DNA of 19,147 nt, taken from positions 1 through 19,147 of IMG/VR virus record IMGVR_UViG_3300045988_000798; one strand, given 5' to 3'. The notes beneath the pieces are model-generated. The model saw only the letters and a list, made by a program, of their open reading frames with translations. It made no database searches and was not told where the DNA came from. The DNA is from a virus. Shown here piece after piece: positions 1 to 14,286 of this stretch. Position 1 is the first letter of the stretch. Each line of letters opens with the position of its first letter. The translations under genes were made by a program, and so were the position numbers.

Positions 1-2
1 AA

Positions 3-332
3 AGCGAAATTTCTGTAAAGACACTCTTTTTCGAACGGACAAATTGCTACAATTTCAACGATATCGTATTAATGCAATCAACAGAATTAACCGACAAGAA
101 TGACAAAGAAATCTTTGAAGGGGATGTCGTGACTGATGGATACACAACAGGCGACATCAAAAACCATCCCACACTAGGATTTTATATGGTTGACGACAAT
201 GGCACGGAAAGATGGTTTAGCGATAATGCAACTATCGAAGATTTTGAGGAAGACGTCGAAACAGCACATAAAATTCTCGAAATCATCGGAAACATCTACA
301 AAAATCCGGAACTGGTAGAGGTGAGCTCATGA
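3..332 (+). CDS. YopX-domain phage protein, 5' end cut by the window edge
   Basis: The frame of the listed 72..332 ORF stays open back to nt 3 (SEISVKTLFFERTNCYNFNDIVL then MQSTELTDKNDKEIFEGDVV...). The DKNxKEIFEGD motif and the C-terminal GNIYKNPELVE motif are typical of the YopX family. Its stop overlaps the next start as ATGA at 329-332. Confidence 0.7.
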   Translation, partial: SEISVKTLFFERTNCYNFNDIVLMQSTELTDKNDKEIFEGDVVTDGYTTGDIKNHPTLGFYMVDDNGTERWFSDNATIEDFEEDVETAHKILEIIGNIYKNPELVEVSS

Positions 333-1039
333 GCGTGAAATACAAATATTCCGGGCTGACAGAGGAATTATATCAACGGTTAGTCAGTGAGCATGCGGAA
401 CTGAGAGAGACGCACAAAAAAGGCTCCTATAAACAGTATTTTCAAGATGTCAGACAGTGCAGCGAAGTACAAGCCCGCATCATTTACCAAGCATTTAATA
501 GTGCGGTGGTGGAACGTGCGAGGATATCGCCCCAAACTGTCGACCGCTTGGAAGGCATTATTTCTGATGAATTATTCGACGACCTTCAAGACTATCTGTC
601 TACTAATTACACAAGAGGTAAAACCACGCGCCCAGTGTTGGATAAAGCCAATGCAGGACTGCCAGAAGATTTATTCAAGCGTTTCCGTGCAGAAGTTGAA
701 GTGCTTAGAAAGACTTATCCTAACAGTATTGTCAAGCATATTATGGACGTTAAAAGTTGTGACAAAAAAGCAGCTAACAAAACCCAAAACGCCCTCAATC
801 TGTGCTATGCGGAAAAAGCCGCCCTAACGCCGTTGAAGGCAATCCAAATGGAAGGGTTACTTTCAAGAGAGTTATTCGGCGAGATTATTGATTATGTCTT
901 CAATAACTATGAATGGAGTGAGAGATTGGACAATGAAGTTGACCGCATCACGCTCGAATATCGTAATAAAGGCAAGGTAGGCCGTGAGAAAACATCAGTC
1001 AGAAAAGCCTTATATACAGCCTATGCACTAGGCGTGTAG
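329..1039 (+). CDS. Hypothetical phage protein with two tandem ~85-aa homologous domains
   Basis: A GAGGTGA ribosome-binding site precedes the ATG. Residues G9-Y94 and G110-Y194 align by eye: GLxExLxxR...LRxT...C...EG(I/L)(I/L)SxELFxxxxDYxxxNY. I recognise no family. Confidence 0.65.
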   Translation: MSVKYKYSGLTEELYQRLVSEHAELRETHKKGSYKQYFQDVRQCSEVQARIIYQAFNSAVVERARISPQTVDRLEGIISDELFDDLQDYLSTNYTRGKTTRPVLDKANAGLPEDLFKRFRAEVEVLRKTYPNSIVKHIMDVKSCDKKAANKTQNALNLCYAEKAALTPLKAIQMEGLLSRELFGEIIDYVFNNYEWSERLDNEVDRITLEYRNKGKVGREKTSVRKALYTAYALGV

Positions 1040-1084
1040 CTAGAACGGTTTACGAGGGTTCGACTCCCTTGCTAGCTATTACCA
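1037..1084 (+). ncRNA. tRNA-like minihelix 1 (acceptor stem plus T-arm, no D or anticodon arm)
   Basis: TAGCTAG (1037-1043) pairs with CTAGCTA (1072-1078). The T-stem is GAGGG (1054-1058) with CCCTT (1066-1070) around the 7-nt loop TTCGACT, giving the tRNA B-box GGTTCGACTCC. A 10-nt GG-containing linker AACGGTTTAC takes the place of the D and anticodon arms. The 5' strand begins on the TAG stop of the upstream CDS, and TTACCA follows the 3' strand. Confidence 0.4.
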
Positions 1085-1103
1085 GTCAATACATATTAGA
1101 AAA

Positions 1104-1250
1104 GAGGAATCCTTTTTATTTTTTTCATTCAAATCGCTGAAGCGTGGACTGGTCGTGGATGCACCAAAATCCAGTAAATAATAAGTTATAGAATCGAGGA
1201 ATCCTTTTTTATTTCATTCACAAATCTAAAGCGTCTTACTGGTGACGTGA
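1104..1250 (+). repeat. Two ~55-nt direct repeats spaced 92 nt apart (1104-1158 and 1196-1250)
   Basis: GAGGAATCCTTTTTATTTTTTTCATTCAAATCGCTGAAGCGTGGACTGGTCGTGG versus GAGGAATCCTTTTTTATTTCATTCACAAATCTAAAGCGTCTTACTGGTGACGTG. Each starts with a weak AT-rich hairpin plus a T-tract and ends in an ACTGG motif, which is also the 5' acceptor strand of minihelix 2. Confidence 0.6.
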
Positions 1251-1366
1251 TTATTCAAGGTTTAATGCCTGCAATGCGAAACTGAAATCTCCATAATTCT
1301 ACTTACTTTATTCTTGTATTATTTCAAAAAAAGGAGGAAAACCTCCAAAATGATTTCTATATCGCA

Positions 1367-1410
1367 GACTGGAATGGTTGTATAAGGGGTTCGATTCCTC
1401 TTGCCAGTCA
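1367..1410 (+). ncRNA. tRNA-like minihelix 2, homologous to element 1
   Basis: GACTGG (1367-1372) pairs with CCAGTC (1404-1409). The T-stem is AGGGG (1385-1389) with CCTCT (1397-1401) around the loop TTCGATT, giving the B-box GGTTCGATTCC. The linker AATGGTTGTATA resembles the linker of element 1. The 3' flank TTGCCAGTCA resembles TTACCAGTCA after element 1. Confidence 0.4.
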
Positions 1411-1753
1411 TTGTCTGTCAAACACTAACTTTTAGTGGCTTGAACACTTTTTCAACACCGGACAAGCTGACAGACCTTGTCCAAACAAAACCCAGCAAAT
1501 TTAAGAAAAAAGGATGTGAAACACCCTCTTTCTTATTGATATCGCATTACAAAATAAAAGCCAAAGACCTTGCTGGTGTCGACGGCTAGAAATGAGGTGA
1601 TAAAAGGCTTGAGAAACACCCCAAGAATAAATACGTATTCTATCTTTTCAATAAAATCTCTTAACGTTTCTTGGGCCAAAATAAAAAAGACCGACACGAT
1701 GGCCGGCACTCTTTGAAAATCAACACTACTATTATACCAGAGAGGGCAGAACA

Positions 1754-2170
1754 ATGCTATTGCCGGAAATTGATGAAAAAGCAACAATCAAACGTTGCAA
1801 GCGCAAACTTCGAGAATATCCACGCTGGCGAGAGATTGCACACGATAGCGCTGAACAAAAGATTACACAAGAGTTTACCTTCATGCCAAGAGGCGGTAGT
1901 GGAGTAAGTAGACCGGTGGAGAATATCGCAGTTAGGCGTGTCGACGCAATGAACGAGTTAGAAGCCATAGAGCAAGCAGTTAGCGGGCTATACCGTCCAG
2001 ATTATCGCAGAATCTTGATAGAGAAATATCTAGCTTATCCACCTAAACCAAACTGGCAAATTGCCCAAGCAATCGGCTTCGAGAGAACGGCGTTTCAAGA
2101 GTTGCTAAATAATGCTATCCTAGCATTTGCAGAATTGTACAGAAATGGTCAATTAGTCGTAGAACGTTGA
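1754..2170 (+). CDS. arpU: ArpU-family phage late transcriptional regulator
   Basis: 138 aa with GAGGG 7 nt upstream of the ATG. The sequence (IDEKATIKRCKRKLREYPRWREIA...RPVENIAVRR...YRRILIEKYL...IAQAIGFERTAFQELLNNAI) and its position directly upstream of the terminase genes match ArpU/sigma-region-4-like late regulators of Gram-positive phages. Confidence 0.8.
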   Translation: MLLPEIDEKATIKRCKRKLREYPRWREIAHDSAEQKITQEFTFMPRGGSGVSRPVENIAVRRVDAMNELEAIEQAVSGLYRPDYRRILIEKYLAYPPKPNWQIAQAIGFERTAFQELLNNAILAFAELYRNGQLVVER

Positions 2171-2220
2171 GATTTCGGTATTTTGACGGATAAAGCACGG
2201 TATCTTACAAGTGTTTAAAG

Positions 2221-2229
2221 TGGTATTAT
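2221..2229 (+). promoter_or_regulatory. Candidate extended -10 promoter element (TGgTATTAT)
   Basis: TGGTATTAT matches the extended -10 consensus TGnTATAAT in 8 of 9 positions. There is no good -35 at 17-nt spacing. It lies between arpU and terS, where late promoters usually sit. Confidence 0.3.
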
Positions 2230-2249
2230 TATATTATCGAAGAAAAACG

Positions 2250-2280
2250 GAGACAACTCATTTTGTGGGTTGTCTTTTTC
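2250..2280 (+). terminator. Rho-independent terminator-like hairpin between arpU and terS
   Basis: The stem AGACAACTCA (2251-2260) pairs with TGGGTTGTCT (2266-2275), 10 bp including one G.U, with loop TTTTG. TTTTT follows at 2276-2280. Confidence 0.6.
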
Positions 2281-2298
2281 AGTATCGGAAAGGAGTTG

Positions 2299-2742
2299 AT
2301 GGAAAATGGGATGACCGAGAAACAAATGAAGTTTGCCGATGAGTACATCATCAGCCTAAATGCTTCGCAAGCGTATAAAAAGGCTTATCCTAATATTAAG
2401 AACAACGATGTTGCAAAGGCTAATGGAAGTAGACTGCTTGCAAAGGCTAACATCAAGGCTTATATAGACGAGCAACTTGAAAAGTTGAAGTCAGAACGTG
2501 TTGCGGATCAACAAGAGGTCATGGAATTTCTCACAGCCGTAATGCGTGGCGAGGTTGAAGAACCTCTGCTTGTCCTCGATGGTGAGGGTATGCAACGTAT
2601 TGCTCAAGCCAAACCAAACGTCGCTACACGTCGCGCTGCGGCAGTTGATATCGGAAAACGTTATAGAATGTGGACGGACAAGGTCGAAGCTGATGTAACG
2701 CAAGATATCAATATTAATGTCGGTGAATGGAATGACGATTAA
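2299..2742 (+). CDS. terS: Terminase small subunit (Terminase_2 type)
   Basis: MTEKQMKFADEYIISLNASQAYKKAYPNIKNNDVAKANGSRLLAKANIKAYI is the typical N-terminal HTH region of this family. The start is uncertain, either ATG 2299 or ATG 2311, with AGGAG at 2291-2295. The TTG at 2263 listed in the track lies inside the upstream hairpin and is unlikely. Confidence 0.85.
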   Translation: MENGMTEKQMKFADEYIISLNASQAYKKAYPNIKNNDVAKANGSRLLAKANIKAYIDEQLEKLKSERVADQQEVMEFLTAVMRGEVEEPLLVLDGEGMQRIAQAKPNVATRRAAAVDIGKRYRMWTDKVEADVTQDININVGEWNDD

Positions 2743-3997
2743 TCTTGATATCAACCCAAGTAGGGTGTTTAATCGGCATATCTATGAGCATTTGTTTGAT
2801 TATGACACGTTCACCGAGGTTCATTATGGCGGAGCATCAAGCGGTAAGAGTCATGGGGTTTTTCAGAAGATAGTCCTCAAAGCTCTTAAAAAGTGGGACA
2901 AGCCCCGCAAAATATTGATATTGCGAAAAGTAGGCTCTACGGTTCGTGACTCGGTATTTGCGGACGTGCAAGCAGCGTTGTCTTATTTCGGTGTGCTTAA
3001 TCTATGCAAGGTTAACATGAGCGCATTCCGAATCGAATTGCCAAACGGCGCTGAGCTGATTTTTAAAGGGATGGATAACCCAGAGAAGATTAAGTCTATC
3101 AAAGGTATTTCGGACGTGGTTATGGAAGAAGCGTCAGAATTTACGCTCGATGATTACACGCAGTTGACACTTCGTTTGAGGGATAAAGCTCACAAACAGA
3201 AACAAATCTATTTGATGTTTAACCCTGTTTCTAAAGCTAATTGGGTATATAATGCGTTCTTTGTGAAGAACCCTAAGAATACAGTGGTTTACCAAACAAC
3301 GTATAAGGATAATCGGTTCCTGGACGACTTGACTAAGGAGAATATCGAGGAGCTGGCAAACCGGAATGAAGCCTATTACAAAATCTATGCTCTGGGGGAA
3401 TTTGCAACACTCGACAAACTAGTTTTTCCGAAGTACGAAAAAAGATTGCTTAACAAGGACGAGCTTAAACAGTTGCCGTCCTTTTTTGGTCTGGACTTTG
3501 GGTTTACTAACGACCCTACGGCGTTTATGCATGTCAAAATAGACCGAGAGAACAAGCGGCTATATATCTTGGAGGAATACGTCAAGAAGGGGTTGCTTAA
3601 CAACCAAATAGCAGAAGCTATAACTAGCCTTGGCTATTCAAAAGAGGTGATTATGGCTGACTCAGCGGAGCAGAAGTCTATTGCTGAACTGCAAACACTA
3701 GGCTTGCGTCGGGCTATTCCAGTAGATAAGGGTAAAGGTTCGGTATTACAAGGGATTCAGTTCTTGCAGCAATTCGACATCATTGTCGACGAAAGGTGCG
3801 TCAAGACGATTGAGGAGCTTGAGAACTATACATGGCAGAAAGATAAACATACAAACGAGTACATCAACAAGCCGTGTGATAGTTACAACCACTGCATTGA
3901 CGCGATTAGATACGCACTGCAAAATCTTATCTTCGTCAAGGATAGACCGGACGTAGACGCTAAAATTAGACGGGTTAACAAACTGATAAGGAGATAG
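2717..3997 (+). CDS. terL: Terminase large subunit (PBSX/Terminase_3 type)
   Basis: 426 aa with a Walker A-like YGGASSGKSH motif and a C-terminal nuclease-like region (MADSAEQKSI...YNHCIDAIRY). It overlaps the end of terS. An alternative start is ATG 2732. Confidence 0.9.
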   Translation: MSVNGMTINLDINPSRVFNRHIYEHLFDYDTFTEVHYGGASSGKSHGVFQKIVLKALKKWDKPRKILILRKVGSTVRDSVFADVQAALSYFGVLNLCKVNMSAFRIELPNGAELIFKGMDNPEKIKSIKGISDVVMEEASEFTLDDYTQLTLRLRDKAHKQKQIYLMFNPVSKANWVYNAFFVKNPKNTVVYQTTYKDNRFLDDLTKENIEELANRNEAYYKIYALGEFATLDKLVFPKYEKRLLNKDELKQLPSFFGLDFGFTNDPTAFMHVKIDRENKRLYILEEYVKKGLLNNQIAEAITSLGYSKEVIMADSAEQKSIAELQTLGLRRAIPVDKGKGSVLQGIQFLQQFDIIVDERCVKTIEELENYTWQKDKHTNEYINKPCDSYNHCIDAIRYALQNLIFVKDRPDVDAKIRRVNKLIRR

Positions 3998-3998
3998 A

Positions 3999-5498
3999 AT
4001 GACGAATACAACACACAGTGCTGACGATATTCTGCATGAAGGGCAGTATATTCCTAGATCGTATCAATTCGAGCGAGACATGGAGCCGACTAGCTTACAG
4101 AAACGTGAAGATTTCCTTCGTTTTGCAAAAGAAGCTAACACGCACTTCATGGCTCAGTCAGCAGACGACCTAGTGGACACGTTCCAAGGACGTGAGAAGC
4201 TAGAGAAGATGGTAGCTCAGTTCCAAGATGAACAGATTGAGCGTTTGAACATCCTAGAGAGCTATTCAAACGGGAACAACTACACGATTCTAAATGGCCG
4301 TAAGCGATTGGAACCAGAGAAGGCTGATTACCGCATTAGGCACGACCTGGGCGGACAAGCTAGCCGTTTCTTTACCGGATATACAGTAGGTCAACCTATT
4401 TCAATCGGTGCTACTGACACTAACGGCGACTTGACAGCCATCGATGAATTCAACGCTTACAACGACATTGAAGCTCTTAATCGTGAGTTGGTTTATGACG
4501 CTTCACGCTTCGGACGAGCGTTTGAACTACACTATTATGATGAGTTTGGCAATCCCGCAGTGGTCTTGATTGACGCAAGGGAAATGTTCACTATTCGTAG
4601 CGCAGACGTTCGAAAGGATATCATCGCGGCTGTCCATTGTCCAGTGTATGACGGCGAGATGTTTGTCACAGTCTACACTGACAACAAGATTGTTAGTTAT
4701 GATCCAAACTGGCAGGAAATCGAACGCAAAGAGAACCCGTTCGGGATGGTGCCAGTGGTGGAGTGGCAGAATAACCGTGAGCGTTCGGGAGATTGGGAGA
4801 AAGGTATTCCAATCATTGACGCTTACGACGCAGCGGAATCTGACACGGCTAACTATATGTCAGACCTTAACGATGCCATGCTTGTTATCAAGGGAGACGT
4901 TGAAAGTACAGGGATGAATGCGTCTGACATTATGAAAATGAAACACGCTAACATGCTTGTTCTTGAAAGTGGTGTCGGTCACAACGGTCAACAAACGTCA
5001 CTAGACGCCGGCTATATCTATAAGCAATACGATGTCAGCGGTGTTGAAGCGTACAAATCACGTTTGATTAAAGACTTCTTCCGAATCGTTGGATTGCCTA
5101 ACTTGCAGGACGACTCGACATTCTCAGCTACGTCTGGGATTGCTATCCGCTACAAGCTGGTTGACTTGCAGCAAGTTACAGCCGTCAAACGTGGATTCTT
5201 TGTCAAGGCGCTCAGACGTCGCTATAAGCTACTTGAGTTACTGTCTAACAATCTCAAAGGTATCGAACCGGTGGATGCTGACATGTTGACATTCACGTTC
5301 CATGAGAACTTACCGACAGACGTATGGGCTGAGATTCAATCAGCTATCAATTCTGGAATGGAAATCTCACAAGAAACACTTATGGAATCAGCTAGCTTCA
5401 CTGATGCTCGAAAAGAAAAGAGCCGTTTGCTCAAAGAGGGCGGCGCTACTGATTTAGAAGTTAGTCAGATTGTAGGTACTGAGGATGATGACGAATAA
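3999..5498 (+). CDS. Portal protein (SPP1 gp6-like)
   Basis: 499 aa, immediately after terL, with an AAGGAG ribosome-binding site. Its size, acidic C-terminus and position are typical of SPP1-type portals. Confidence 0.85.
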   Translation: MTNTTHSADDILHEGQYIPRSYQFERDMEPTSLQKREDFLRFAKEANTHFMAQSADDLVDTFQGREKLEKMVAQFQDEQIERLNILESYSNGNNYTILNGRKRLEPEKADYRIRHDLGGQASRFFTGYTVGQPISIGATDTNGDLTAIDEFNAYNDIEALNRELVYDASRFGRAFELHYYDEFGNPAVVLIDAREMFTIRSADVRKDIIAAVHCPVYDGEMFVTVYTDNKIVSYDPNWQEIERKENPFGMVPVVEWQNNRERSGDWEKGIPIIDAYDAAESDTANYMSDLNDAMLVIKGDVESTGMNASDIMKMKHANMLVLESGVGHNGQQTSLDAGYIYKQYDVSGVEAYKSRLIKDFFRIVGLPNLQDDSTFSATSGIAIRYKLVDLQQVTAVKRGFFVKALRRRYKLLELLSNNLKGIEPVDADMLTFTFHENLPTDVWAEIQSAINSGMEISQETLMESASFTDARKEKSRLLKEGGATDLEVSQIVGTEDDDE

Positions 5499-6441
5499 TG
5501 AACGCTACAATGCCGAGCGAAAAGCACAATCAGACCTAATCAAGCGTGACATAGGGCGTGACAAAGTCTTAAAAGAGCTTTATCAAACGTCTTATAACCG
5601 CATGCAGAGCCAAATAAACGGGTTTTACATGCGCTATGCCGACAAGGAAGGGCTGAGTCGTGCCGAAGCTATGAAGCGAGCTAGTGAGTTCGATGTCACT
5701 GAGTATAAGGACCGAGCTAGAAAAGCAGTAGTCGAGAAAGATTTTTCACACGGCACAAATCAATGGCTAAGACTGTTTAACTTGAAAATGAAAGTCAGTC
5801 GTTTGGAACTACTCAAAGCAGAATTAAGACTTGAGATAGCTAGTCTTATATCAGACGTTAACGAAGTCTTTGACGAAGCTCGTGAGAATGAATACTTAGC
5901 TGAGTTTAAGCGTCAAGCGGGGATCTTGGGCAATTCTGCCGTCAATGCAGTAAGTCGCATGAGAGCGATTTTAGACGCTGATTTCTACGGTCAGAATTTT
6001 AGTCGCAGAGTTTGGGGCAGAAATGGACTTCATGCAAGTATGCAGAAGGATGTGTTTAGCTCGTTAGCACGCATCTTCACCGATATGGACGGTTTTAAGC
6101 AGGAGCGGCAACGATTAGCTAAGAAATATAACACAAGCCAGTCCAACGCCCAACGACTACTCAAGACCGAAATAGCTCGCATTAATGCTGATACAGAGTT
6201 GATGATGTTGAAAGAAAACAACTTCACACATCTAATCTATGTTGCAGAAAGTGGGGCTTGCGATATTTGTAAGCCCTTGGACAAAAAAGCTATACCGATC
6301 AACAAGGCAGAAAAGGGGGTCAACATGTACCCAATGCACCCTAACTGTCGCTGTTCAGCGTATGGACATATCAAAATGGAATATAAAGCTGGCGGCAGCA
6401 CTCTTGATGAAGAAGCTGTTAACGGCGTTTGGGGTGAATAA
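5485..6441 (+). CDS. Minor head protein (SPP1 gp7 / Mu F-like)
   Basis: 318 aa directly after the portal gene. It carries the family-typical motifs NFSRRVWG and C-terminal CDICKPL...MHPNCRCS. Confidence 0.85.
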   Translation: MMTNNERYNAERKAQSDLIKRDIGRDKVLKELYQTSYNRMQSQINGFYMRYADKEGLSRAEAMKRASEFDVTEYKDRARKAVVEKDFSHGTNQWLRLFNLKMKVSRLELLKAELRLEIASLISDVNEVFDEARENEYLAEFKRQAGILGNSAVNAVSRMRAILDADFYGQNFSRRVWGRNGLHASMQKDVFSSLARIFTDMDGFKQERQRLAKKYNTSQSNAQRLLKTEIARINADTELMMLKENNFTHLIYVAESGACDICKPLDKKAIPINKAEKGVNMYPMHPNCRCSAYGHIKMEYKAGGSTLDEEAVNGVWGE

Positions 6442-6527
6442 CCCCTTGTCCAGACCGTGCTGAGGACATTAAAAGCTGCATGAGTTCGTCGAGGTTGGAC
6501 GTTAAAGCGTAAAGAAAGGAGCCTATC

Positions 6528-7079
6528 ATGGCAGAAAAAGAACTTGAAACAGTTGAGAATCCTCAAGAGGTTGAAGCTAGCCAACCAGGAAAAGAGGAGA
6601 AGATGGTGTCAGTCGCTGAAATGCAGCGTAGACTCAAGCAGATGGAAGAAAAACATACTCTTGAAATTGCTGATATGCAAACCGGTATTCAATCTCAAAT
6701 CGAGGAAGCCGTTGCTAAAGCTAAAATGAGCGAAGAAGAACTTCAAGAGCTACAACAGAAACAGCGGGATAAAGAATTCGAAGAAGCCCAGAGCACAATC
6801 GCAGCACTTCAAGCTCAAATCGCTCAACGTCAAATGCAAGATATCGCTATTAAAGAGCTCGAAGCTCAAGGCGTTCCCGTTAATGAGTCAACGCTTGCAT
6901 TCGTTGTAAAAGGCGACGAAGAAGCTACCAAGTTAGCTGTTTCAAACATGGCTAACATCCTAAACTTGCAGAAACGAGAAGAAGCAAAAGCTCTCCCACC
7001 TCGCACTAGTGGCGGAGAGGAAGGGCGTTCACATCGTGGAAAAGACAAGTTTGACAAAGCCAAAATCACTAATTTCTAA
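6528..7079 (+). CDS. Scaffolding protein
   Basis: 183 aa, rich in E/K/Q/A and predicted coiled-coil. It lies just upstream of the capsid gene and has an AAAGGAG ribosome-binding site. Confidence 0.75.
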   Translation: MAEKELETVENPQEVEASQPGKEEKMVSVAEMQRRLKQMEEKHTLEIADMQTGIQSQIEEAVAKAKMSEEELQELQQKQRDKEFEEAQSTIAALQAQIAQRQMQDIAIKELEAQGVPVNESTLAFVVKGDEEATKLAVSNMANILNLQKREEAKALPPRTSGGEEGRSHRGKDKFDKAKITNF

Positions 7080-7097
7080 TTTAAGAAAGGAGAGCGC

Positions 7098-8030
7098 ATG
7101 GCTCAACAAAAATTTAATCCAGACACAGTTCTATTGTCTGATTCTCTTGGGAAAGAGATTACGTCAGAACAAATCACTGATCTTTTCACCGACGAACTCG
7201 TTAAAACTTCAAAAGTTATTCAGCTTGGCCAAAAAGTTGAAATGGACGGCAAAATGGTCCGCAAAGGTGTTGAAGTTGGTCAATTGACAGACGCTTACTT
7301 TGTGGGTGAAGGTCAAAAAATTGGTACTGCAAAAGTACAAACTAAATCTTACGTTCTTGAATCTCGCAAATTGGCAGTTATCTTGCCGGTAACAGAAGAA
7401 GTCCTTAACTACACTTGGACTGATTTCTTCGAATCAATCAAGGATAAGATCGTTGACTTGTTCAACAAAAAAATCGACGGAGCAGCATTCCTTGGTTTGT
7501 ACAACAACCCATTCGGTGCCAACGTCTTGGCGTCTGCTAAACGTGCTCAAAACATCGTATCTGGGGACATCAACCTTAATAACATCTACGATGTTGAGGA
7601 TAAATCAGAAAAAGAACCTAACGCATTCGTAGGTCACCGCACTATCAACCGCACACTTCGTGGAATCGTCGACAATGTGAACGGCGGTCAACACATCTTC
7701 ACTAAACCAGCTAACCCTAACGCAATCGGTGAGCTTGATGGCCTTCCATATTCTCAACTTCAATTGCAAGATGGGCAAACTTACCCAGCAGGTACATTGA
7801 TCACTGGTAACTTCAATGGTTTGGTTTACGGTATTCCAAACGGCACTAACCTGCGTCTTAAAATCGCAGACCAAGCTACTTTGTCTAAAGTTCAAAATGA
7901 TGGCACACTTGATTCTGGTGACGTTCACTTGTTTGAACAAGACATGCAAGCACTTCGTGCAATCTTTGAAATTGCCGTAGCGATTCCAAACGACGAAGCA
8001 TTTGCAGCGATCCAACCAGTAGGAGTCTAG
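7098..8030 (+). CDS. Major capsid protein
   Basis: 310 aa with a strong AAAGGAG ribosome-binding site and biased, highly expressed-type codon use. It sits after the scaffold gene. Confidence 0.8.
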   Translation: MAQQKFNPDTVLLSDSLGKEITSEQITDLFTDELVKTSKVIQLGQKVEMDGKMVRKGVEVGQLTDAYFVGEGQKIGTAKVQTKSYVLESRKLAVILPVTEEVLNYTWTDFFESIKDKIVDLFNKKIDGAAFLGLYNNPFGANVLASAKRAQNIVSGDINLNNIYDVEDKSEKEPNAFVGHRTINRTLRGIVDNVNGGQHIFTKPANPNAIGELDGLPYSQLQLQDGQTYPAGTLITGNFNGLVYGIPNGTNLRLKIADQATLSKVQNDGTLDSGDVHLFEQDMQALRAIFEIAVAIPNDEAFAAIQPVGV

Positions 8031-8043
8031 TCAGGAGGTTTAA

Positions 8044-8316
8044 ATGACCTATAAAGCTAAGATTACATTCCGTGACTTGCAAGATAACGAGTATATCTAT
8101 CAAGTCGGGGAAGTTTACCCACGAGAAGGCTATGAGCCATCTAAAGAGCGTGTGGCAGAAGTTCTTGAAAAAGGCGGTATCGAACAAGTCGATCCGCCAA
8201 AAGAACTTACAGTCAAGGAGCTCAAAGCAAAACTTGATGAAGCTGGTGCCGAGTATGACACCAAAGCGAAAAAAGCAGATTTAGAAGAACTTCTAAAGGC
8301 TGCGGAGGAGGTCTAA
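8044..8316 (+). CDS. Small head-module protein with a C-terminal HeH/SAP-like motif
   Basis: 90 aa with an AGGAGG ribosome-binding site. The C-terminal LTVKELKAKLDEAGAEYDTKAKKADLEELL resembles the HeH/SAP helix-extension-helix motif. Confidence 0.55.
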   Translation: MTYKAKITFRDLQDNEYIYQVGEVYPREGYEPSKERVAEVLEKGGIEQVDPPKELTVKELKAKLDEAGAEYDTKAKKADLEELLKAAEEV

Positions 8317-8317
8317 A

Positions 8318-8665
8318 ATGAACGATATCCAACTTGAGAAGATTAAACGTCGGTTGGGTATCGACGTTGAAGACGATCTTGAGGATGAATTGATTGAGGA
8401 CTTAGTCAACGACGCTGAGAGTTATTTCAAAGCACTAGTCGGAACAACCGAGATTGACAAGAAATATCATTTCATCATCGAAAATGTTGTTTACAAGCTC
8501 TATGGTCGTAAGGGTTCAGAAGGTGTCAAAACCGAAAACGTAGACGGCTATTCAGTCACCTACGAAGATTGGGATGACATGTTCAAACCTTACAGAAAGA
8601 TTTTGGATAAAGATTTCGGCCTAGATGGCTCGTTAGCTCGAAAAGGTAAGGTGAAATTCCTATGA
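8318..8665 (+). CDS. Head-tail connector protein (gp6/gp15-like)
   Basis: 115 aa with an acidic N-terminus (IDVEDDLEDELIEDLVNDAESYF) typical of phage head-tail connector proteins. It has a GGAGGAGG ribosome-binding site. Confidence 0.65.
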   Translation: MNDIQLEKIKRRLGIDVEDDLEDELIEDLVNDAESYFKALVGTTEIDKKYHFIIENVVYKLYGRKGSEGVKTENVDGYSVTYEDWDDMFKPYRKILDKDFGLDGSLARKGKVKFL

Positions 8666-8970
8666 AAACACCACACCGCATTAAGCTAGTGAAGCAAGGT
8701 GTTTCGACTTACAACCCAATCACTGATAAGCACGAAGAAAAGGCACAGTCTAGCAAGATTGTGCCTTGTTTAGTCAATTTTATTGACCAACAGCGTGCAT
8801 TTGAAGCCTACGGGAGTAGGTCGGACGTGGTCATGATATGCCGATTCAATCAAGAGCAGAAGCCGTTTGACTATGCTCTATATGAGGGCAAGAAGTATTA
8901 TCCTATCGAACGCATTGACGCACCGATAAAAGGGGCAATCCGATTGAAGCGAGGTGAGCTAAATGGCTAA
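8662..8970 (+). CDS. Head-closure / head-tail adaptor candidate
   Basis: 102 aa, coupled to the upstream gene by an ATGA overlap. The call rests on position only. Confidence 0.45.
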   Translation: MKTPHRIKLVKQGVSTYNPITDKHEEKAQSSKIVPCLVNFIDQQRAFEAYGSRSDVVMICRFNQEQKPFDYALYEGKKYYPIERIDAPIKGAIRLKRGELNG

Positions 8971-9316
8971 TTTCACAATCGAGTGGAGAGGGGACACAGT
9001 CCTCGCTGCTGCTTTGAATAAGGCAAGTCAAGGAGTTAGAACACAAGCTCAAAACGCTCTTAAAAACTCAGCTGAGAAGGGCAAGAGTATTTCAAAAGGT
9101 CTTGCGCCAGTGGATACCGGCTTCTTGAGAGCTAATATCACCACTAGGCATTTGGGCGAAGAATCGCACATCCATTCAGCCGCCTCTTATAGTGGATTCC
9201 AAGAATTCGGAACACGCTATCAGCCTGGAAAACCGTTTATGCGTCCAATGATGCAACAGATCGAGCCTTACTTCACAGAACAAATCAGAAAAGTTATGGA
9301 AGGAGCCTTTAAATGA
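8963..9316 (+). CDS. HK97 gp10-family tail-component protein
   Basis: 117 aa carrying APVDTGFLRANI and FQEFGTRYQPGKPFMRP, characteristic HK97 gp10-like motifs. Confidence 0.8.
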   Translation: MANFTIEWRGDTVLAAALNKASQGVRTQAQNALKNSAEKGKSISKGLAPVDTGFLRANITTRHLGEESHIHSAASYSGFQEFGTRYQPGKPFMRPMMQQIEPYFTEQIRKVMEGAFK

Positions 9317-9693
9317 CACCAAACCATGACTTATTCAGAAATCTATTTGCTATTGCTAACGAAACATTGGCAACTTATGACTATTTACCCGATTCATCAG
9401 CTAGTTATCCATTCGCTTTCATCGGTGAAAATAGCTCAGCACCTACACTCAATAACGAAAACTTTGGAACGATAAGACAAACCGTCCATATCTACGGGAC
9501 TAGAGTGCAGCGTGCAGAGCTAGACGCCCACTGTCAAACGTTGGAACGAGCTAGCGAACGAATTAAAGGGTTTGAATACAACTTATTAAAAACTGGTACA
9601 GACAAGCAAGTCTTACCAGATAATACAGACGTCCAGCCATTGATACACATTGTGCTGGATTTTTCATTTACATATACCAAAAAGGAGGAATAA
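9313..9693 (+). CDS. Tail completion / tail terminator candidate
   Basis: 126 aa with an ATGA overlap to the upstream gene. It lies immediately before the major tail gene. The call rests on position only. Confidence 0.45.
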   Translation: MTPNHDLFRNLFAIANETLATYDYLPDSSASYPFAFIGENSSAPTLNNENFGTIRQTVHIYGTRVQRAELDAHCQTLERASERIKGFEYNLLKTGTDKQVLPDNTDVQPLIHIVLDFSFTYTKKEE

Positions 9694-10236
9694 ATGGCAG
9701 AACTTATTTTGGGGAAAGACCTAATGGTCTTCTTCCGTCGTGTCAAAGACCAGAAGACACAAGACGCTGCTAAGGTACGTTTCCAAACAGAACACACTAT
9801 CAATGCTGAAAAAGAGGTCGAAACTACCAAAACCAAAGACGGTGTAGTTAACTCTATCTCCGACGGGGAAGTGTCTGGGGAATTCGTATCACTTGCTTAT
9901 CGTGAAGATGGGACTACCACAGAAATGTGGCGTGAAATGCGTAAATGGTTCATCGCAGGCGACAAAGTAGAGTGCTGGCAAGTTGACCTTGCTTCCAAAC
10001 GCGCTTCTGGTGGCAAAGATGTCTATGACGTTGAATATTACCAAGGTTATCTTAAAAACTTTGAAATCGCAGCACCCGCTGACGACAAAGTTGAGCTTTC
10101 TTATGAAATGGCTATCGATGGCAACGGTATTATTTCTACTGATAGCTTGACAGAAGCTCAGAAGAAAGCAGTCGCAAGCGCTCAATACGACTACCACACT
10201 CTTGCTAAAGAAGACAGCCTAGTTTCATCTATCTAG
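9694..10236 (+). CDS. Major tail protein
   Basis: 180 aa with an AAGGAGG ribosome-binding site, followed by a strong terminator and then the chaperone pair and TMP. This is the canonical siphovirus order. Confidence 0.75.
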   Translation: MAELILGKDLMVFFRRVKDQKTQDAAKVRFQTEHTINAEKEVETTKTKDGVVNSISDGEVSGEFVSLAYREDGTTTEMWREMRKWFIAGDKVECWQVDLASKRASGGKDVYDVEYYQGYLKNFEIAAPADDKVELSYEMAIDGNGIISTDSLTEAQKKAVASAQYDYHTLAKEDSLVSSI

Positions 10237-10243
10237 TCTATTG

Positions 10244-10271
10244 CAGGGGCTTTGAGCCCTTGCTTTTTTTG
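10244..10271 (+). terminator. Rho-independent terminator after the major tail gene
   Basis: GCAGGGGCT (10244-10252) pairs with AGCCCTTGC (10256-10264), 9 bp including one G.U, with a 3-nt loop. TTTTTTT follows at 10265-10271. Confidence 0.75.
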
Positions 10272-10291
10272 TATAAAAGGAGAAATAAAAC

Positions 10292-10633
10292 ATGATTCTA
10301 TCTATCAACGGACGAGACTTTAATTTGATTTTCGGACTTGCATTTTTGCGTGAGATCAACAAATTGCACTCAGCAGAGCTTGAAGGCATGAAGACTGGCT
10401 ACGGGGCTATGACATTGATTTCAGCCGGTGTGGCTATCAATGACCCGCTAGCATTCGTGGATATCATCAAAGCTGGTACAATTACAGCGCCACAAAAGCC
10501 AAGTGATGCTGACATTGAAGCCTATCTTGCTGATTTGATTGACAAAGGTAAATACAAGGAGACAATCGACTCTATTATTGACGAGTTAAAAGCGTCATCC
10601 CTACTCAAACTCGCAATGAACGTTCAAGAGTAG
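10292..10633 (+). CDS. Tail assembly chaperone (gpG-like)
   Basis: 113 aa with an AAAGGAG ribosome-binding site. It lies between the major tail gene and TMP. Confidence 0.7.
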   Translation: MILSINGRDFNLIFGLAFLREINKLHSAELEGMKTGYGAMTLISAGVAINDPLAFVDIIKAGTITAPQKPSDADIEAYLADLIDKGKYKETIDSIIDELKASSLLKLAMNVQE

Positions 10634-11010
10634 GGCAAAGTCAACCAGATTATGATTTCAGCTATGACGACGCAATGGCCCTCTTGATTGCAAGGCACGG
10701 CATGAGCTACGTCGAAGCTGCCAGGACAACGCTTGTTGAGTTCGAGGTGTATAACACCGCCTACGCAATTAAACAAGAGGACATCCGCTTTAACGCAGCA
10801 ATTCAAGCATGGTATAACCAGACCGTGCAAGCTACCAAAGGCAAGGGCAAGAGTGTTCGCTCAGCTTACCGAACCTTTAATGAGTTCTACGACCATGAAA
10901 AAGAGTTCAGCAAGATATTTAAACCAGAGGACACTGTGCCAAGAAGTCGAGCGCTCTCGTTAGCTGATAAGAATAGGATCATTAATCAACAAAAGAAAGG
11001 GGGTAGTTAA
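10582..11010 (+). CDS. gpT-like -1 frame extension of the chaperone (probable frameshift fusion with 10292..)
   Basis: The -1 frame relative to 10292..10633 is open from 10582, just after the TGA at 10579-10581, through 11010. There is no Shine-Dalgarno sequence ahead of the listed ATG at 10675. The two frames overlap for 52 nt (10582-10633). Confidence 0.55.
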   Translation, partial: RVKSVIPTQTRNERSRVGQSQPDYDFSYDDAMALLIARHGMSYVEAARTTLVEFEVYNTAYAIKQEDIRFNAAIQAWYNQTVQATKGKGKSVRSAYRTFNEFYDHEKEFSKIFKPEDTVPRSRALSLADKNRIINQQKKGGS

Positions 11011-11654
11011 TGGGAGCATCTTTTGACGTTACAGCCATATTGCGTGCTAACTCAAGTGACTTCACCAATGGCGTCAATGCTGCTCGGTCTGCCCTTGCTG
11101 ATTTGAGAAATCAGTCTGGGGGCATGCTTGCTCAAGTTGGTAGCAGTTTAAAGTCAGTTGGTAGCGCCATGCAATCAGTCGGGGCTGGAATGACTACAGC
11201 TTTTACATTGCCGATGGTTGGAGGTTTGACAGCCGTAATCAAAGGCTATGCAGACCTTGAGCAATCGTTGGGTGGTGTTTCTACGCTGTTTAAACAGAAT
11301 GGGTCAAGCGTCAACACCCTTGCTAGAGACTACGGCATGACCAGGGAGCAAGCCCAAGCGCTCTACAATACAATGGATCGTGAGGGAACCAACGTCATTG
11401 AGAATGCCAACGGAGCCTATAGGACGGCTGGTGTGTCTGCTAACCGATACATGGAGCAGGTCACATCGTTCTCAGCTACCTTGCTACAAGGTCTAGGCGG
11501 AGACACTGCCAAGGCTGCGAAATACGGGGATAAAGCCCTTGTCCAAATGTCAGATAATGCGAACAAGTTCGGTACTAACATGACGGACATTCAAAACGCT
11601 TATCAAGGTTTCGCAAAAGATAACTATTCAATGCTGGATAACTTGAAACTCGGT
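11010..11654 (+). CDS. Tape measure protein, exon 1 (215 codons)
   Basis: An AAGGGGG ribosome-binding site precedes the start. The sequence ends in AYQGFAKDNYSMLDNLKLG, the first half of the conserved TMP motif MLDNLKLGYGGT. The remaining 20 codons of the listed ORF, up to the TAG at 11715, have no TMP-like continuation. Confidence 0.8.
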
Positions 11655-11939
11655 AGAAAAACCATAGCCGAGTATAAACCTAGTGGAAACGGTGAAACTC
11701 TACGCTATGTAGCGTAGACAATACCGTGCTAAGCAAGATTTAATCTTGAAAGTGTAACGACTATCGAAACAGAAGAAGCATCCGAAAGGGTGTTTTTTTA
11801 ATGGAGTAGAGTAGGCTCAAGCGAGCCGAAGCACTAGGATGTATTTAATACATAAGAGATAGTCTAATCTCTATGGCGACATAGAGCAGTCTTTAAAAGA
11901 CGGTTGTGATTTAGCGAATCACAGCGAATATGTACCGTG
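11655..11939 (+). ncRNA. Group I self-splicing intron, ORF-less, 285 nt
   Basis: P1: exon ACTCGGT (11648-11654) pairs with GCCGAGT (11667-11673), with a terminal U.G at the splice site. P10: ACCATA (11661-11666) pairs with exon 2 TATGGT (11940-11945). The last intron base is G (11939). A P7-like long-range pair joins GACTATC (11759-11765) to GATAGTC (11858-11864), resembling the R and S core consensus elements. There are at least 8 local hairpins, two with GNRA loops. Confidence 0.8.
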
Positions 11940-14264
11940 TATGGTGGTACCATGTCCGAAATGGTTCGTTTGGTCAATGAATCTGGTGTCTTAAATGGTG
12001 AATTTGAAGCCACAGCTGATAATATCCGTGACATTCCATTCCATACCTTGATTGATGCCATCGGCATTACTCAAGATAGGCTCGGTGTTACTGGAACGAC
12101 TGCCAAAGAAGCAAGTACAACCGTTTCAGGATCGTTCAATTCCATGAAAGCTGCCGCCGAGAACTTAGTGGCCGGCCTTGGTAATAACGAAGCTAATATC
12201 AAGCAGCTTATGGAAAACATGAAGCAGACTATCATCACGTTCAAGGATAATGTGGTGCGTGTTCTAGGGACTATCTGGGACAATCTGCCAGTGGACGGCT
12301 GGGTTAAATGGGCAGCGCTGATCATTGGAGTGGCGGGGCCTATTATTGCAATATTAGGAACCTTAATCATTTGGATCGGGAACGTTGTTTCAGCATTGAG
12401 CACAATCGGTGGAGCTATCAGCTCAGTAGTAGGGTTCTTTTCAAGCGGTTCTACCGCAGCTAGCGGTCTAGGTGCCGCTTTTAGCGGGCTATCAGCCGGG
12501 GCTCTTGCTGCTTTTGCCGGCATTGTTGCTGCAGTGGCTCTAGTTGGGGCTGCGCTCGTTGACTTATGGAACAATAACGAGAATTTCCGTGCACAAGTTA
12601 CGGCAATCTGGGAAACCATCAAGAGTGCAATCACTAGCGCTGTTCAAGCCATTGTGTCGTTCGTTATGTCAATTTGGGGGCAGTTGACTTCATTCTGGAA
12701 CGAAAACCACGCCTTGATTATGCAAACGGCGACAACTTACTGGAACATGTTTAAGGGTGTGATTGAAAATGTAATGAACGCTATCTTACCAGTGATTCAA
12801 ACTGGCTTGAATTTGCTTATTACATTGTTTTCTACATCTTGGCAACTTATTACCACTGTCATTTCCACGGCTCTTGAAATCGTGTTAAACATCATTAAGA
12901 TGGCTATGCAAATCTTACAAGGTGACTGGTCTGGAGCGTGGGAAACACTCAAGACTATCTTGTCTACTGTGTGGGAAGGTATCAAGTCTCTTGTTTCAAT
13001 CGGTATCAATGCTATTGGTCCGATTATCCAAGCGGGTATTCAATTCATTCTCGCTATCTGGAACGCAGCATGGGCATTGTTAGCTATTCCATTCCAAACG
13101 CTTTGGGCATTACTTCAACAAATCGCTGGCGGAGCTATGACTGCCATTAGCGGTGTGATTAGTGCCGGTATCGCCGTGATTCAATCCATTTGGTCAGCGG
13201 CGTGGACAGTTATCCAGACAGTTTTCTCGACAGTTTGGAATACAATCATGTCTATTCTGTCACCTATCATGGCCGGCATATCAAGCATTATTTCAAGCAC
13301 TTTGTCAGCTATTCAAGCGATTTGGAACGCTATCTGGACGGGGATTCAAGCTGTTTTGGCTGGTGTATTAGCTGCTATTGTCGGTTTGGTTACTGGTAAC
13401 TTCTCACAAGTTCAAGCGGCTATTTCGTCAATTATGTCAGCTATTCAAGCCACTATCAGTGCGATTTGGAACGCCATTTTGTCACTTATTAGTAGCGTAC
13501 TAAGTGCGATTGCTAGCACTGTATCAAGTACATGGGCATCTATCCAGTCAATCGTTTCAAGTGCTATGAGTTCCGTTCAGAGCATTATCAGCTCAGCTTG
13601 GAGTGCTGTTAGATCAGCAGTATCAAGTGCCATGAGCTCTATTCAGTCAGCTATCACTAGCGGATTTAGTGCCGTGGTATCAGCGGTAACAAGTGCCGGT
13701 CAGCGTATCATTTCAGCGGTCCGTTCAGCGTTCAGCGGTGCACTTAGTGCAGCCCGTGGATTCGTCGGGCAAGCTGCAAGCGTCGGTTCTCAATTGATTA
13801 GCGGTTTCGTTAGCGGGGTTACATCCGCAGCCGGCAAGCTGATTTCAGCAGTTAAAGGCGCGGTAAGTAATGCGATTAATGGAGCTAAAGCCTTGCTTGG
13901 TATCAAATCACCATCCCGTGTATTCCGTCAATTCGGTATCTACACGGATAAAGGTTTCATCATCGGTATTGCTAGCAAAGCGGACCAAGTAGCCCGTTCA
14001 ATGCGCTATATGGCCCAAGGAGCTATCGACGCATTCACTGGTCAAGATATCAACGGAGCCATCACTGATGAACTTGGTAGCATGGATGGTCAGTTAGGTC
14101 GTTTGGCAGGGTATGATCCATCAGTTTCGTTCAACGGCGGCAAGATGTCAGTTACTCAACAAGCAGCGAATATCGTACTTAAAATGGGCGATACGACTTA
14201 CAGAGCATTTACCGATGACATCACTAATGCTCAGTCAATGGAATTAATGCTTAATAACTATTAA
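11940..14264 (+). CDS. Tape measure protein, exon 2 (774 codons; spliced TMP about 989 aa)
   Basis: It begins YGGTMSEMVRLV, completing the conserved motif. It contains hydrophobic segments, long Ser/Ala/Ile-rich repeats and the C-terminal GIKSPSRVFRQFG motif typical of TMPs. It is in the same reading phase as exon 1, since the intron is 285 = 3 x 95 nt. Confidence 0.85.
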   Translation, partial: YGGTMSEMVRLVNESGVLNGEFEATADNIRDIPFHTLIDAIGITQDRLGVTGTTAKEASTTVSGSFNSMKAAAENLVAGLGNNEANIKQLMENMKQTIITFKDNVVRVLGTIWDNLPVDGWVKWAALIIGVAGPIIAILGTLIIWIGNVVSALSTIGGAISSVVGFFSSGSTAASGLGAAFSGLSAGALAAFAGIVAAVALVGAALVDLWNNNENFRAQVTAIWETIKSAITSAVQAIVSFVMSIWGQLTSFWNENHALIMQTATTYWNMFKGVIENVMNAILPVIQTGLNLLITLFSTSWQLITTVISTALEIVLNIIKMAMQILQGDWSGAWETLKTILSTVWEGIKSLVSIGINAIGPIIQAGIQFILAIWNAAWALLAIPFQTLWALLQQIAGGAMTAISGVISAGIAVIQSIWSAAWTVIQTVFSTVWNTIMSILSPIMAGISSIISSTLSAIQAIWNAIWTGIQAVLAGVLAAIVGLVTGNFSQVQAAISSIMSAIQATISAIWNAILSLISSVLSAIASTVSSTWASIQSIVSSAMSSVQSIISSAWSAVRSAVSSAMSSIQSAITSGFSAVVSAVTSAGQRIISAVRSAFSGALSAARGFVGQAASVGSQLISGFVSGVTSAAGKLISAVKGAVSNAINGAKALLGIKSPSRVFRQFGIYTDKGFIIGIASKADQVARSMRYMAQGAIDAFTGQDINGAITDELGSMDGQLGRLAGYDPSVSFNGGKMSVTQQAANIVLKMGDTTYRAFTDDITNAQSMELMLNNY

Positions 14265-14286
14265 GAGAGAAAAGAGGTTTTAGCTA

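Follow-up and report, generated by a model that had tools for sequence, protein, structure and literature searches.

Several RNAs are known that imitate all or part of a transfer RNA (tRNA). The t-elements of plant mitochondria consist of an acceptor-like stem and a T-arm with a GTTCRANYC-type loop, have no anticodon arm, and lie within untranslated parts of polycistronic or precursor transcripts, where cuts by RNase P and RNase Z define the ends of mRNAs. In MALAT1 mascRNA, MEN-beta and the TMERs of MHV68, longer transcripts contain a tRNA-like fold that attracts RNase P and/or RNase Z, and one transcript yields an upstream 3′ end and a small tRNA-like RNA, in the TMERs together with a downstream hairpin RNA. 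The tRNA-like domain of transfer-messenger RNA (tmRNA) likewise combines an acceptor stem and a T-arm, lacks an anticodon arm and has a short, GG-containing analogue of the D-loop. The C4 antisense RNA of phages P1 and P7 (RF01695, with related c4 motifs) is a phage regulatory RNA that shares a transcript with its target; a helix mimicking the acceptor stem makes its precursor a substrate of RNase P, and complementary segments of the operon RNA are bound by its loops. Synthetic minihelices built from an acceptor stem and a T-arm serve RNase P, RNase Z, the CCA-adding enzyme and EF-Tu as model substrates. Here we describe natural elements of this type in a 19,147-nucleotide (nt) stretch of viral DNA, positions 1 to 19,147 of IMG/VR record IMGVR_UViG_3300045988_000798, referred to as the window. 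It covers the early/late junction and the morphogenesis region of a Streptococcus siphophage related to the Aliceevansviridae phages of S. salivarius and S. thermophilus. Two minihelices, E1 and E2, are located in the 715-nt gap between the gene of a DUF1340 protein and that of an ArpU-like late transcriptional activator, the two genes named as flanks in an original prediction made from the sequence of the window. The claim of that prediction, two homologous anticodon-less tRNA-like minihelices with an acceptor-like stem and a canonical T-arm, is confirmed by the sequence, by the predicted folds and by a covariance model.

E1 spans positions 1037-1078 on the + strand in the order TAGCTAG-AACGGTTTAC-GAGGG-TTCGACT-CCCTT-G-CTAGCTA. 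The 5′ strand TAGCTAG (1037-1043) is paired with CTAGCTA (1072-1078), and the T stem GAGGG/CCCTT (1054-1058 with 1066-1070) carries the T loop TTCGACT (1059-1065), while AACGGTTTAC (1044-1053) is a bulged linker. As had been predicted, E1 starts on the stop codon of the upstream gene, its first three bases being the DUF1340 stop TAG (1037-1039). E2 (1367-1410, + strand) has the order GACTGG-AATGGTTGTA(TA)-AGGGG-TTCGATT-CCTCT-(TG)-CCAGTC at 1367-1409, followed by A1410 at a discriminator-like position. Its acceptor-like stem GACTGG/CCAGTC (1367-1372 with 1404-1409) is separated by the bulged linker at 1373-1382 from the T stem AGGGG/CCTCT (1385-1389 with 1397-1401), which is lengthened by 1383-1384 and closed by the T loop TTCGATT (1390-1396). 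Single-sequence folding recovers both minihelices as minimum-free-energy and as centroid folds, with minimum free energies of -15.9 and -14.7 kcal/mol for E1 and E2, respectively; the covariance-model scores are 83.4 bits for E1 and 33.8 bits (E = 3.6e-5) for E2. Counting the outermost T-A pair of E1, or the two additional T-stem pairs of E2, brings each helix to 13 stacked layers. Within the window, the GGTTCGANTCC box is found twice compared to 0.01 expected occurrences, and none of 200 shuffles reaches two.

The trailers of the two elements are similar in design. Behind E1 (1079-1087, + strand), U1079 and U1080 are followed by the tail ACCAGUC (1081-1087), which is complementary to 1147-1153; counted from the T loop, A1078, U1079 and U1080 take the positions of the discriminator and of nucleotides 74 and 75. 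Behind E2 (1411-1420, + strand), two U residues precede the invariant tail GUCUGUCA (1413-1420), which is complementary to the loop of a downstream hairpin, H2. Judged by sequence, E1 and the ACCAGUC tail resemble a duplicated and since diverged copy of E2 and the GUCUGUCA tail.

To follow the elements through related phages, 80 IMG/VR loci were gathered via the DUF1340 protein, and 83 sources were searched with a covariance model built from 25 E1-type sequences. A minihelix on the + strand that overlaps the DUF1340 stop codon was found in all 83 sources, with the stems preserved, and a second copy in 41 of them, giving 124 copies in total, all on the + strand. Standard base pairs fill 97.9% of the pair cells, as opposed to 36-63% when the partners are slid against each other; the covariance-model alignment leans towards the structure of the model, and independent counts in Python as well as the raw sequence listings agree with this result. 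Double-sided, compensatory changes are seen at 7 of the 12 pairs, and the observed values were reached in 0 of 500 shuffles, which bears out the earlier claim of covariation. Examples recognizable by eye are TAGCTAG/CTAGCTA versus TAGCCAG/CTGGCTA in the E1 acceptor strands and GAGGG/CCCTC versus GACGG/CCGTC in the T stem; in E2, GGCTGG/CCAGTC is replaced by GGCGGG/CCCGTC and GGCGAG/CTCGTC in two relatives (L045 and L052, respectively). In the paired columns G.U outnumbers A.C by 47 to 7; only selection on the + strand RNA would be expected to give such an asymmetry. We conclude that E1 and E2 are RNA elements of the + strand, encoded in cis and under selection for pairing. By their sequences they are neither decayed tRNA genes, as the original prediction had considered, nor chance hairpins, purifying selection on the pairing contradicting such decay, and the comparison identifies a helix of 12-13 layers capped by a T-loop as the conserved core.

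Individual loci depart from the common arrangement. In L058 the DUF1340 stop TAG is mutated to CAG and the open reading frame (ORF) runs through the minihelix (3207-3262), L050 (3207-3262) has an E1/E2 hybrid whose acceptor strands are unable to pair, and in L220 (1954-2140) the whole unit of minihelix, tail and H2 is duplicated in tandem. Phages with a single element look, by sequence, like E1/E2 recombinants.

The elements are also found in phages of the genera Moineauvirus, Brussowvirus and Piorkowskivirus. E1 of the S. thermophilus phages is a contiguous 12-bp helix with a 7-nt TTCGANT loop, for example GGCTTATAGTGG-TTCGAAT-CCACTATAAGTC, with a z score of -6.1. Its 5′ strand encodes the C-terminus of DUF1340 (..MGL*), and the TAG is located at helix positions 7-9. 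In the non-coding 3′ strand of non-recombinant copies, changes always retain Watson-Crick or G.U pairing; the whole set contains 31 G.U and no A.C cells, and of its five non-standard cells four belong to E1/E2 recombinants, the remaining one being an A.G in L217. These copies also bear on the linker. The original prediction described it as single-stranded and proposed that its GG mimics the D-loop contacts G18/G19 of the tRNA elbow; it is a bulge of the 5′ strand that is missing in many relatives, namely in all S. thermophilus-phage copies and in some salivarius-type E2 copies (type C, GGCTG-TC-AAGGG..CCTTT-GC-CAGTC), and the elbow proposal is not upheld. In L006 the linker reads TGGGCTTGT, where the window has AACGGTTTAC, and matches ATGGGCTT(A/G)T, the coding 5′ strand in the element of the S. 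thermophilus phages. The salivarius linker AACGGTTTAC may be what a strand replacement has left behind, and not a mimic of the D-loop.

A query of 120 nt from phage 93, spanning E2, the tail and H2, detects the block of minihelix, tail and H2 in 331 INPHARED records, all of them from Streptococcus and including 2972, DT1 and TP-J34. Dairy and oral phages carry it, lytic as well as temperate ones, and its presence in both of the latter points to a core rather than an accessory function. The block usually has no annotated feature, or at most an anonymous stem-loop, as in the GenBank record of TP-J34, where stem_loops are placed at the element but are not discussed in the accompanying paper. In the whole 45.6-kb genome of TP-J34 the element occurs solely at 13.17-13.32 kb, about 12 kb from int (1-1080) and not next to the integrase; a role as attP or integration core was rejected on this basis. 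In phage 2972 (L088), the arbitrary start and end of the record cut through E1, which has lost its 3′ half, and an intact unit is retained at nt 77-118 (helix 77-106). A promoter-like site matching in 10 of 12 positions (GTGATA-16-TATAAT) lies ~20 nt 5′ of this intact minihelix; the positions concerned are L088 28-55 and 1-20, and L089 1095-1105. A dedicated promoter upstream of E2 was rejected as a general feature; it is not conserved in TP-J34, and the block is absent from single-element phages. The element was not found described in the literature on tRNA-like elements in Streptococcus phages, on DUF1340 or on Sfi21, and a survey of 40 phage genomes does not mention the region. The host range was mapped within phage and viral collections; a pattern applied to a genome collection, GGTTCRANYCCN{8,16}GTCTGTC, was discarded as too loose, since it picked up genuine tRNA genes of unrelated phyla whose trailers fit by chance, and a sample of its loci was negative when checked with the covariance model.

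The geometry of the elements is that of a tRNA half. All 124 distinct copies have a TTC(G/A)ANY T-loop closed by GG/CC, and the T-arm is canonical, with a 5-bp stem, the closing pair G53-C61 and a 7-nt loop T54-T55-C56-R57-A58. In tRNA, twelve nucleotides and the discriminator follow the T-loop. Here, 12 nt after the T-loop come a purine, U and U/C (offsets 13-15) in 98 of the 124 distinct copies, and the same motif is placed one nucleotide later in the remaining 26; an encoded CCA is found in none. The stacking of 12 bp of acceptor and T stem followed by an unpaired discriminator is likewise observed, most clearly in E1 of the S. thermophilus phages, in which 12 contiguous bp are followed by A. 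Each element thus appears, by its sequence, to mimic the coaxial acceptor-stem/T-arm half of tRNA, with a 7-nt T-loop closed by G53-C61. The tRNA genes of the Streptococcaceae all lack an encoded CCA and depend on RNase Z, which cleaves directly 3′ of the discriminator; the cut mapped by rapid amplification of cDNA ends in S. oligofermentans is A|U (PMC8549757).

No described family accommodates the elements. Canonical tRNA genes have a D-arm and an anticodon arm; here, the acceptor 5′ strand and the T stem are no more than 9-12 nt apart. As the original prediction expected, ARAGORN calls no tRNA or tmRNA in the window, nor does it in 114 related loci, so that no full-length tRNA stands at this position in the relatives. 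The Rfam tRNA family RF00005 gives no match at E ≤ 10. The tmRNA family RF00023 matches the T-arm alone, with 8-16 bits compared to a gathering score of 47; a tag ORF is missing, and in place of G3:U70, pair 3-70 reads G-C in E1 but C-G in E2. A scan of the window at the gathering thresholds of Rfam 15 returns nothing but a group I intron elsewhere, and scans by E-value of the gap and four homologous loci, covering C4, ROOL, GOLLD, Y RNA-like families and others, return nothing relevant. The minihelices are not intrinsic terminators, because no U tract directly follows them (trailers UUACCAGU and UUGUCUGU), and a terminator scan of positions 900-2300 gives no site on the + strand. Weak + strand terminators behind E1 were considered and rejected, the GAGGAAUCC hairpins folding at only about -4 kcal/mol with z about 0. 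As in t-elements, a tRNA-like fold is placed outside the coding sequence, in a gap of 715 nt on the strand of its neighbours. Judged from these comparisons, the element fits no Rfam family and may be described as tRNA-like, with a biological setting and an associated motif that are both new.

This motif extends downstream. The sequence comparison indicates that the minihelices are part of a larger modular structured RNA, which the original prediction had missed and which includes the tail and a complementary hairpin loop. In every phage the last minihelix is followed by (A/G)UU(A)GUCUGUC(A/G), and the tail GTCTGTC(A/G) was found 22-83 nt upstream of 85 of 88 CTGACAG(A/G)C sites. Between the tail and H2, the hairpin H1 (1423-1437, + strand; stem CACUAA/UUAGUG) was identified by sequence comparison and has variable A-rich inserts in its loop in the relatives. 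It is followed by ACACUUUUUCAACAC (1444-1458, + strand), which belongs to a direct repeat of 11 nt, ACACTTTTTCR, that relatives carry in 1-3 copies and that is also seen at the homologous position in L003-L090; its phased T tracts could also act at the DNA level, by bending or as iterons. H2 (1460-1482, + strand) has the stem GGACAAG/CUUGUCC, a minimum free energy of -9.1 kcal/mol and a z score of -3.1. All seven stem pairs show double-sided changes, with a covariation score of 0.61 compared to 0.15 for shuffled alignments; 88% of the stem cells are paired versus 24-44% in slid registers, and at least five distinct stem sequences occur. Its 9-nt loop CUGACAGAC (1467-1475) is invariant, with 1468-1475 complementary to the tail at 1413-1420. 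RNAalifold pairs the tail with the H2 loop over 8 bp, and rare variants with an A to G exchange in the tail or in the loop yield G.U pairs. The full 8-bp helix of tail and loop cannot coexist with the full H2 stem, because no spacer nucleotide is left to the 3′ strand of H2; we infer that the two engage in partial kissing or form alternative conformers.

Further modules have a tail of the CCAG type. Module 1 (1081-1153, + strand), for which the direct repeats D1/D2 were noted, pairs ACCAGUC (1081-1087) with GACUGGU (1147-1153) and encloses the weak GAGGAAUCC hairpin, which folds at -4.2 kcal/mol with z about 0, as well as a U run. Module 2 (1171-1242, + strand) is a repeat of module 1 and pairs CCAGUAA (1171-1177) with UUACUGG (1236-1242), and module 3 (1492-1576, + strand) pairs CCAGCAA (1492-1498) with UUGCUGG (1570-1576) around a hairpin at 1506-1532. 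In general, the complement (UURCUGG or GACUGGU) follows 46-70 nt 3′ of the 7-nt tail (CCAGYAA or ACCAGUC), with a hairpin and a U-rich run in between. Across the phages, CCAGC tails always stand opposite GCUGG, and CCAGU opposite ACUGG or GCUGG; the pairs covary as C:G, U:A and U:G, and C:A never occurs, which supports pairing in the + strand RNA.

Some observations in and around the gap concern other pairings or the opposite strand. Late genes contain two more copies of TGACAGAC, which is complementary to the GUCUGUCA tail (7285-7292 and 16079-16086, + strand); the 8-mer is found four times on both strands, the two known sites included, compared to 0.68 expected, an excess that is not significant alone, and the additional copies could be targets in trans. 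In the S. thermophilus phages (L086 2300-2316), the tail region UAGUCUGUC(A/G)UGACUA is able to fold into a small hairpin by itself, UAGUC/GACUA, a possible alternative to the pairing of the tail with the H2 loop; this hairpin is absent from the salivarius-type window. On the minus strand, four terminator-like hairpins are found in the gap (1346-1333, 1532-1506, 1625-1608 and 1707-1690), and the terminator scan of 900-2300 gives five sites, all on the minus strand, versus 1.0 expected. The strand of the hairpin 1532-1506 is ambiguous, its homologues swapping G.U for A.C, and that at 1707-1690 is conserved in TP-J34 (L090 988-971). A minus-strand promoter-like site with 10 of 12 matches (2256-2228) lies between the late-activator gene and terS, and an antisense RNA to the late-activator gene that ends at 1707-1690 is possible.

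The arrangement of DUF1340 gene, spacer and activator gene is common to the Aliceevansviridae phages of S. thermophilus and S. salivarius. No convincing sigma-70 promoter was found directly 5′ of the late-activator gene, so that it probably depends on read-through of the gap RNA, whose transcription from the + strand is suggested by the wobble signature. We tentatively favour the explanation that the minihelices serve as tRNA-like processing punctuation that splits an early read-through transcript from the late-activator RNA. The tRNA-maturation machinery of the host would read each minihelix as a CCA-less pre-tRNA. RNase Z would cleave 3′ of the purine at the discriminator position, before the conserved UU (in 2972, the predicted cut is after G107), and RNase P may cleave at the 5′ edge of the helix. 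Cleavage would set the 3′ end of the early mRNA and free a small minihelix RNA that could gain a CCA, and it would make the 5′ end of a downstream structured RNA, UU(A)GUCUGUCA, able to pair with the invariant H2 loop. The interaction of tail and H2 would then act on the new 5′ end and affect the stability and timing of the late-activator mRNA. The main positive argument, a circumstantial one, is the conserved spacing of twelve nucleotides, purine and UU 3′ of the T-loop without an encoded CCA, in combination with the CCA-less tRNA genes of the host; punctuation by RNase P or RNase Z, a role named in the original prediction, fits this geometry, with the cleavage itself inferred.

Compared with the described systems, the t-elements are closest in function, followed by MALAT1 mascRNA and the MHV68 TMERs, and by C4 of P1/P7. 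The phage minihelices share with t-elements their position in untranslated parts of polycistronic or precursor transcripts, and differ in their Firmicutes phage setting, the frequent bulge of the 5′ strand, the overlap with a stop codon and the conserved tail and hairpin downstream. mascRNA and the TMERs are full cloverleaf mimics of eukaryotic nuclei or herpesviruses, whereas here only the acceptor/T-arm half is present, in a bacterial host. The pairing of C4 loops within their operon resembles the complementarity of the tail and the H2 loop; C4, however, shows no similarity in Rfam, has no canonical T-loop, and belongs to another host clade and to an immunity operon instead of an early/late junction. 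Structurally, the synthetic acceptor/T-arm minihelix and the tRNA-like domain of tmRNA appear closest. E1 of the S. thermophilus phages, with a purine and a single-stranded trailer behind its 12-bp helix, corresponds to the textbook form of the former, which are laboratory constructs, while the natural elements include 12- and 13-layer variants, bulges and internal loops. In tmRNA the acceptor strands are the ends of an RNA of ~350 nt that encloses the tag ORF and pseudoknots and carries G3:U70, whereas the helix described here is local.

Several points weigh against processing. The Rfam tRNA model gives the minihelices no score. The helix has 12 layers in some copies and 13 in others, and many copies contain a 9-15-nt bulge or a 2x2 internal loop, which could weaken recognition by RNase P and RNase Z. 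The chief obstacle is the stop codon of DUF1340, which an RNase P cut at the 5′ edge would remove, in the S. thermophilus phages together with the last two codons; the resulting non-stop mRNA would be a cost without explanation, or else indicate that RNase P does not act here. T-loops are general tertiary modules of RNA, and the element could be a structural part of a larger RNA and not an enzyme substrate. Finally, the RNA sequencing and CRISPR papers on phage 2972 do not mention the region.

In the most serious alternative, which we consider somewhat unlikely, the minihelix would be a structural module of a larger cis-regulatory RNA, either the leader of the late-activator mRNA or a 3′ untranslated region of the early operon, in which the T-loop serves as a tertiary dock or a nuclease-resistant cap and the RNA as a whole governs how stable the late-activator message is or how it is translated. 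Such a role would account for the constant association of the last minihelix with the GUCUGUCA tail and the complementary, invariant H2 loop, for the covarying helices of the other tails and complements, and for the duplication and recombination of modules as units (L220, and E1/E2 in the window); the probable read-through into the activator gene and the known use of T-loops as tertiary motifs agree with it. It leaves unexplained the tRNA spacing (12 nt, R, UU) and the avoidance of CCA in 124 copies. The variation of the gap from ~150 to 715 nt, with modules gained and lost, is also unlike a single compact fold, and in the H-type topology without a spacer the complete helix of tail and loop and the full H2 stem exclude each other.

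An improbable reading is that the minihelix controls the upstream gene by coupling the termination of DUF1340 translation to the folding or cleavage of the RNA, be it that RNase P creates a non-stop mRNA that leads to late tagging by tmRNA or that ribosome occupancy decides on the folding. Helix and stop codon overlap in each of the 83 salivarius-type sources and, at helix positions 7-9, in the S. thermophilus phages, and the overlap is maintained despite the different helix register of the two groups. However, E2 copies, which overlap no ORF, are equally conserved, 2972 has kept E2 without the 3′ half of E1, and L058 reads through its mutated stop codon; the overlap may be mere compaction, the 5′ strand having been recruited from the coding sequence. 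Equally doubtful is a tRNA-mimic decoy or recruiter formed after processing and CCA addition and directed at the CCA-adding enzyme, EF-Tu, T-arm modification enzymes or defence toxins that target the acceptor end. The architecture is the minimal minihelix substrate of several tRNA-binding enzymes, and the T-loop is strictly conserved, but the acceptor stems vary freely and retain neither an aminoacylation identity nor G3:U70, and the element is universal at a fixed locus of lytic and temperate phages, while typical counter-defence cargo is variable. Least probable are non-functional relics (decayed tRNA genes or recombination scars) or DNA-level elements (an iteron origin, a protein-binding inverted repeat or a recombination hot spot), which would be in line with the tRNA descent that the T-arm and a UAGCU...GG-like 5′ segment suggest by eye, with the recombinant look of single-element phages and the unpaired acceptor of L050, and with the 1-3 T-tract repeats and the 8-bp inverted repeat just downstream, but which are largely refuted by the compensatory changes, by G.U to A.C ratios of 47:7 and, in S. 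thermophilus E1, 31:0 that are unexpected for duplex DNA or neutral decay, by the lack of a full tRNA in 114 loci and by a location other than attP in TP-J34.

Processing punctuation, our preferred explanation, can be extended to a proposal that we regard as unlikely as a whole. The Aliceevansviridae would use the tRNA maturation of the host as a timing device, in which the early operon is cut at or before the DUF1340 stop, a CCA-tailed mini-tRNA is released, and the GUCUGUCA seed toggles between the H2 loop and other targets and thereby sets the timing of late-activator expression.

In the gene order of the window, YopX (72-332) comes first, followed by the DUF1340 gene (329-1039, + strand), which ends the early/replication block, the 715-nt gap, the activator gene, TerS, TerL and onward. 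The nearest phages in the databases are SA-TP2 and YMC-2011 of S. salivarius and many S. thermophilus phages. The DUF1340 protein is assigned to Pfam PF07067 (E = 1.5e-77) and to PHROG 1814, a family of unknown function. Its AlphaFold2 model (window 329-1036) has a mean predicted local distance difference test score of 79 and shows two tandem all-helical repeats at approximately residues 5-93 and 107-210; a Foldseek comparison of the model with the PDB gives no fold match at E ≤ 0.001, and a PDB sequence search for an RNA-related role was not informative. Metagenomes contain more than 4000 members of the family, which also occurs in 336 INPHARED records, and its matches in database phages are all from Streptococcus. 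The activator gene (1754-2170, + strand), the first 3′ of the gap, belongs to PHROG 248, 'transcriptional activator' (E = 2e-44), and its homologues in related phages are annotated as ArpU or transcriptional activator. The gap between them, on the same strand as both genes, has no conserved ORF; small ORFs on both strands show no conservation, also in comparison with phage 2972, and coding potential was therefore rejected. The group I intron at 11620-11886 (+ strand; RF00028, 53 bits, above the gathering score) is located between the ORFs 11010-11717 and 11937-14264, where it apparently interrupts the tape-measure gene, just 5′ of the gene of the distal tail protein (Dit; Pfam Sipho_tail, 14287-15078).

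Among biological threats to the fermentation of yoghurt and cheese, phages of S. thermophilus rank first, and 2972, DT1 and relatives of Sfi21 are model phages of CRISPR biology. A conserved tRNA-like RNA at the early/late junction of about 330 of these and related Streptococcus phage genomes has nevertheless been overlooked, being absent from Rfam and annotated at most as 'stem_loop'. Its invariant T-loop, tail and H2 loop are attractive targets for immunisation by RNA-targeting (type III) CRISPR and for diagnostics. If the minihelices are processing signals, the co-option of RNase P and RNase Z for punctuating mRNAs, found in plant mitochondria and in mammalian nuclei, would extend to bacterial viruses, and the element would offer a handle on late-gene timing in Streptococcus phages. 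If they act as a timing device, they would be the first counterpart of organellar t-elements or mascRNA in bacterial viruses, and a new RNA family in essentially all dairy Streptococcus phages that sets the timing of packaging and lysis.

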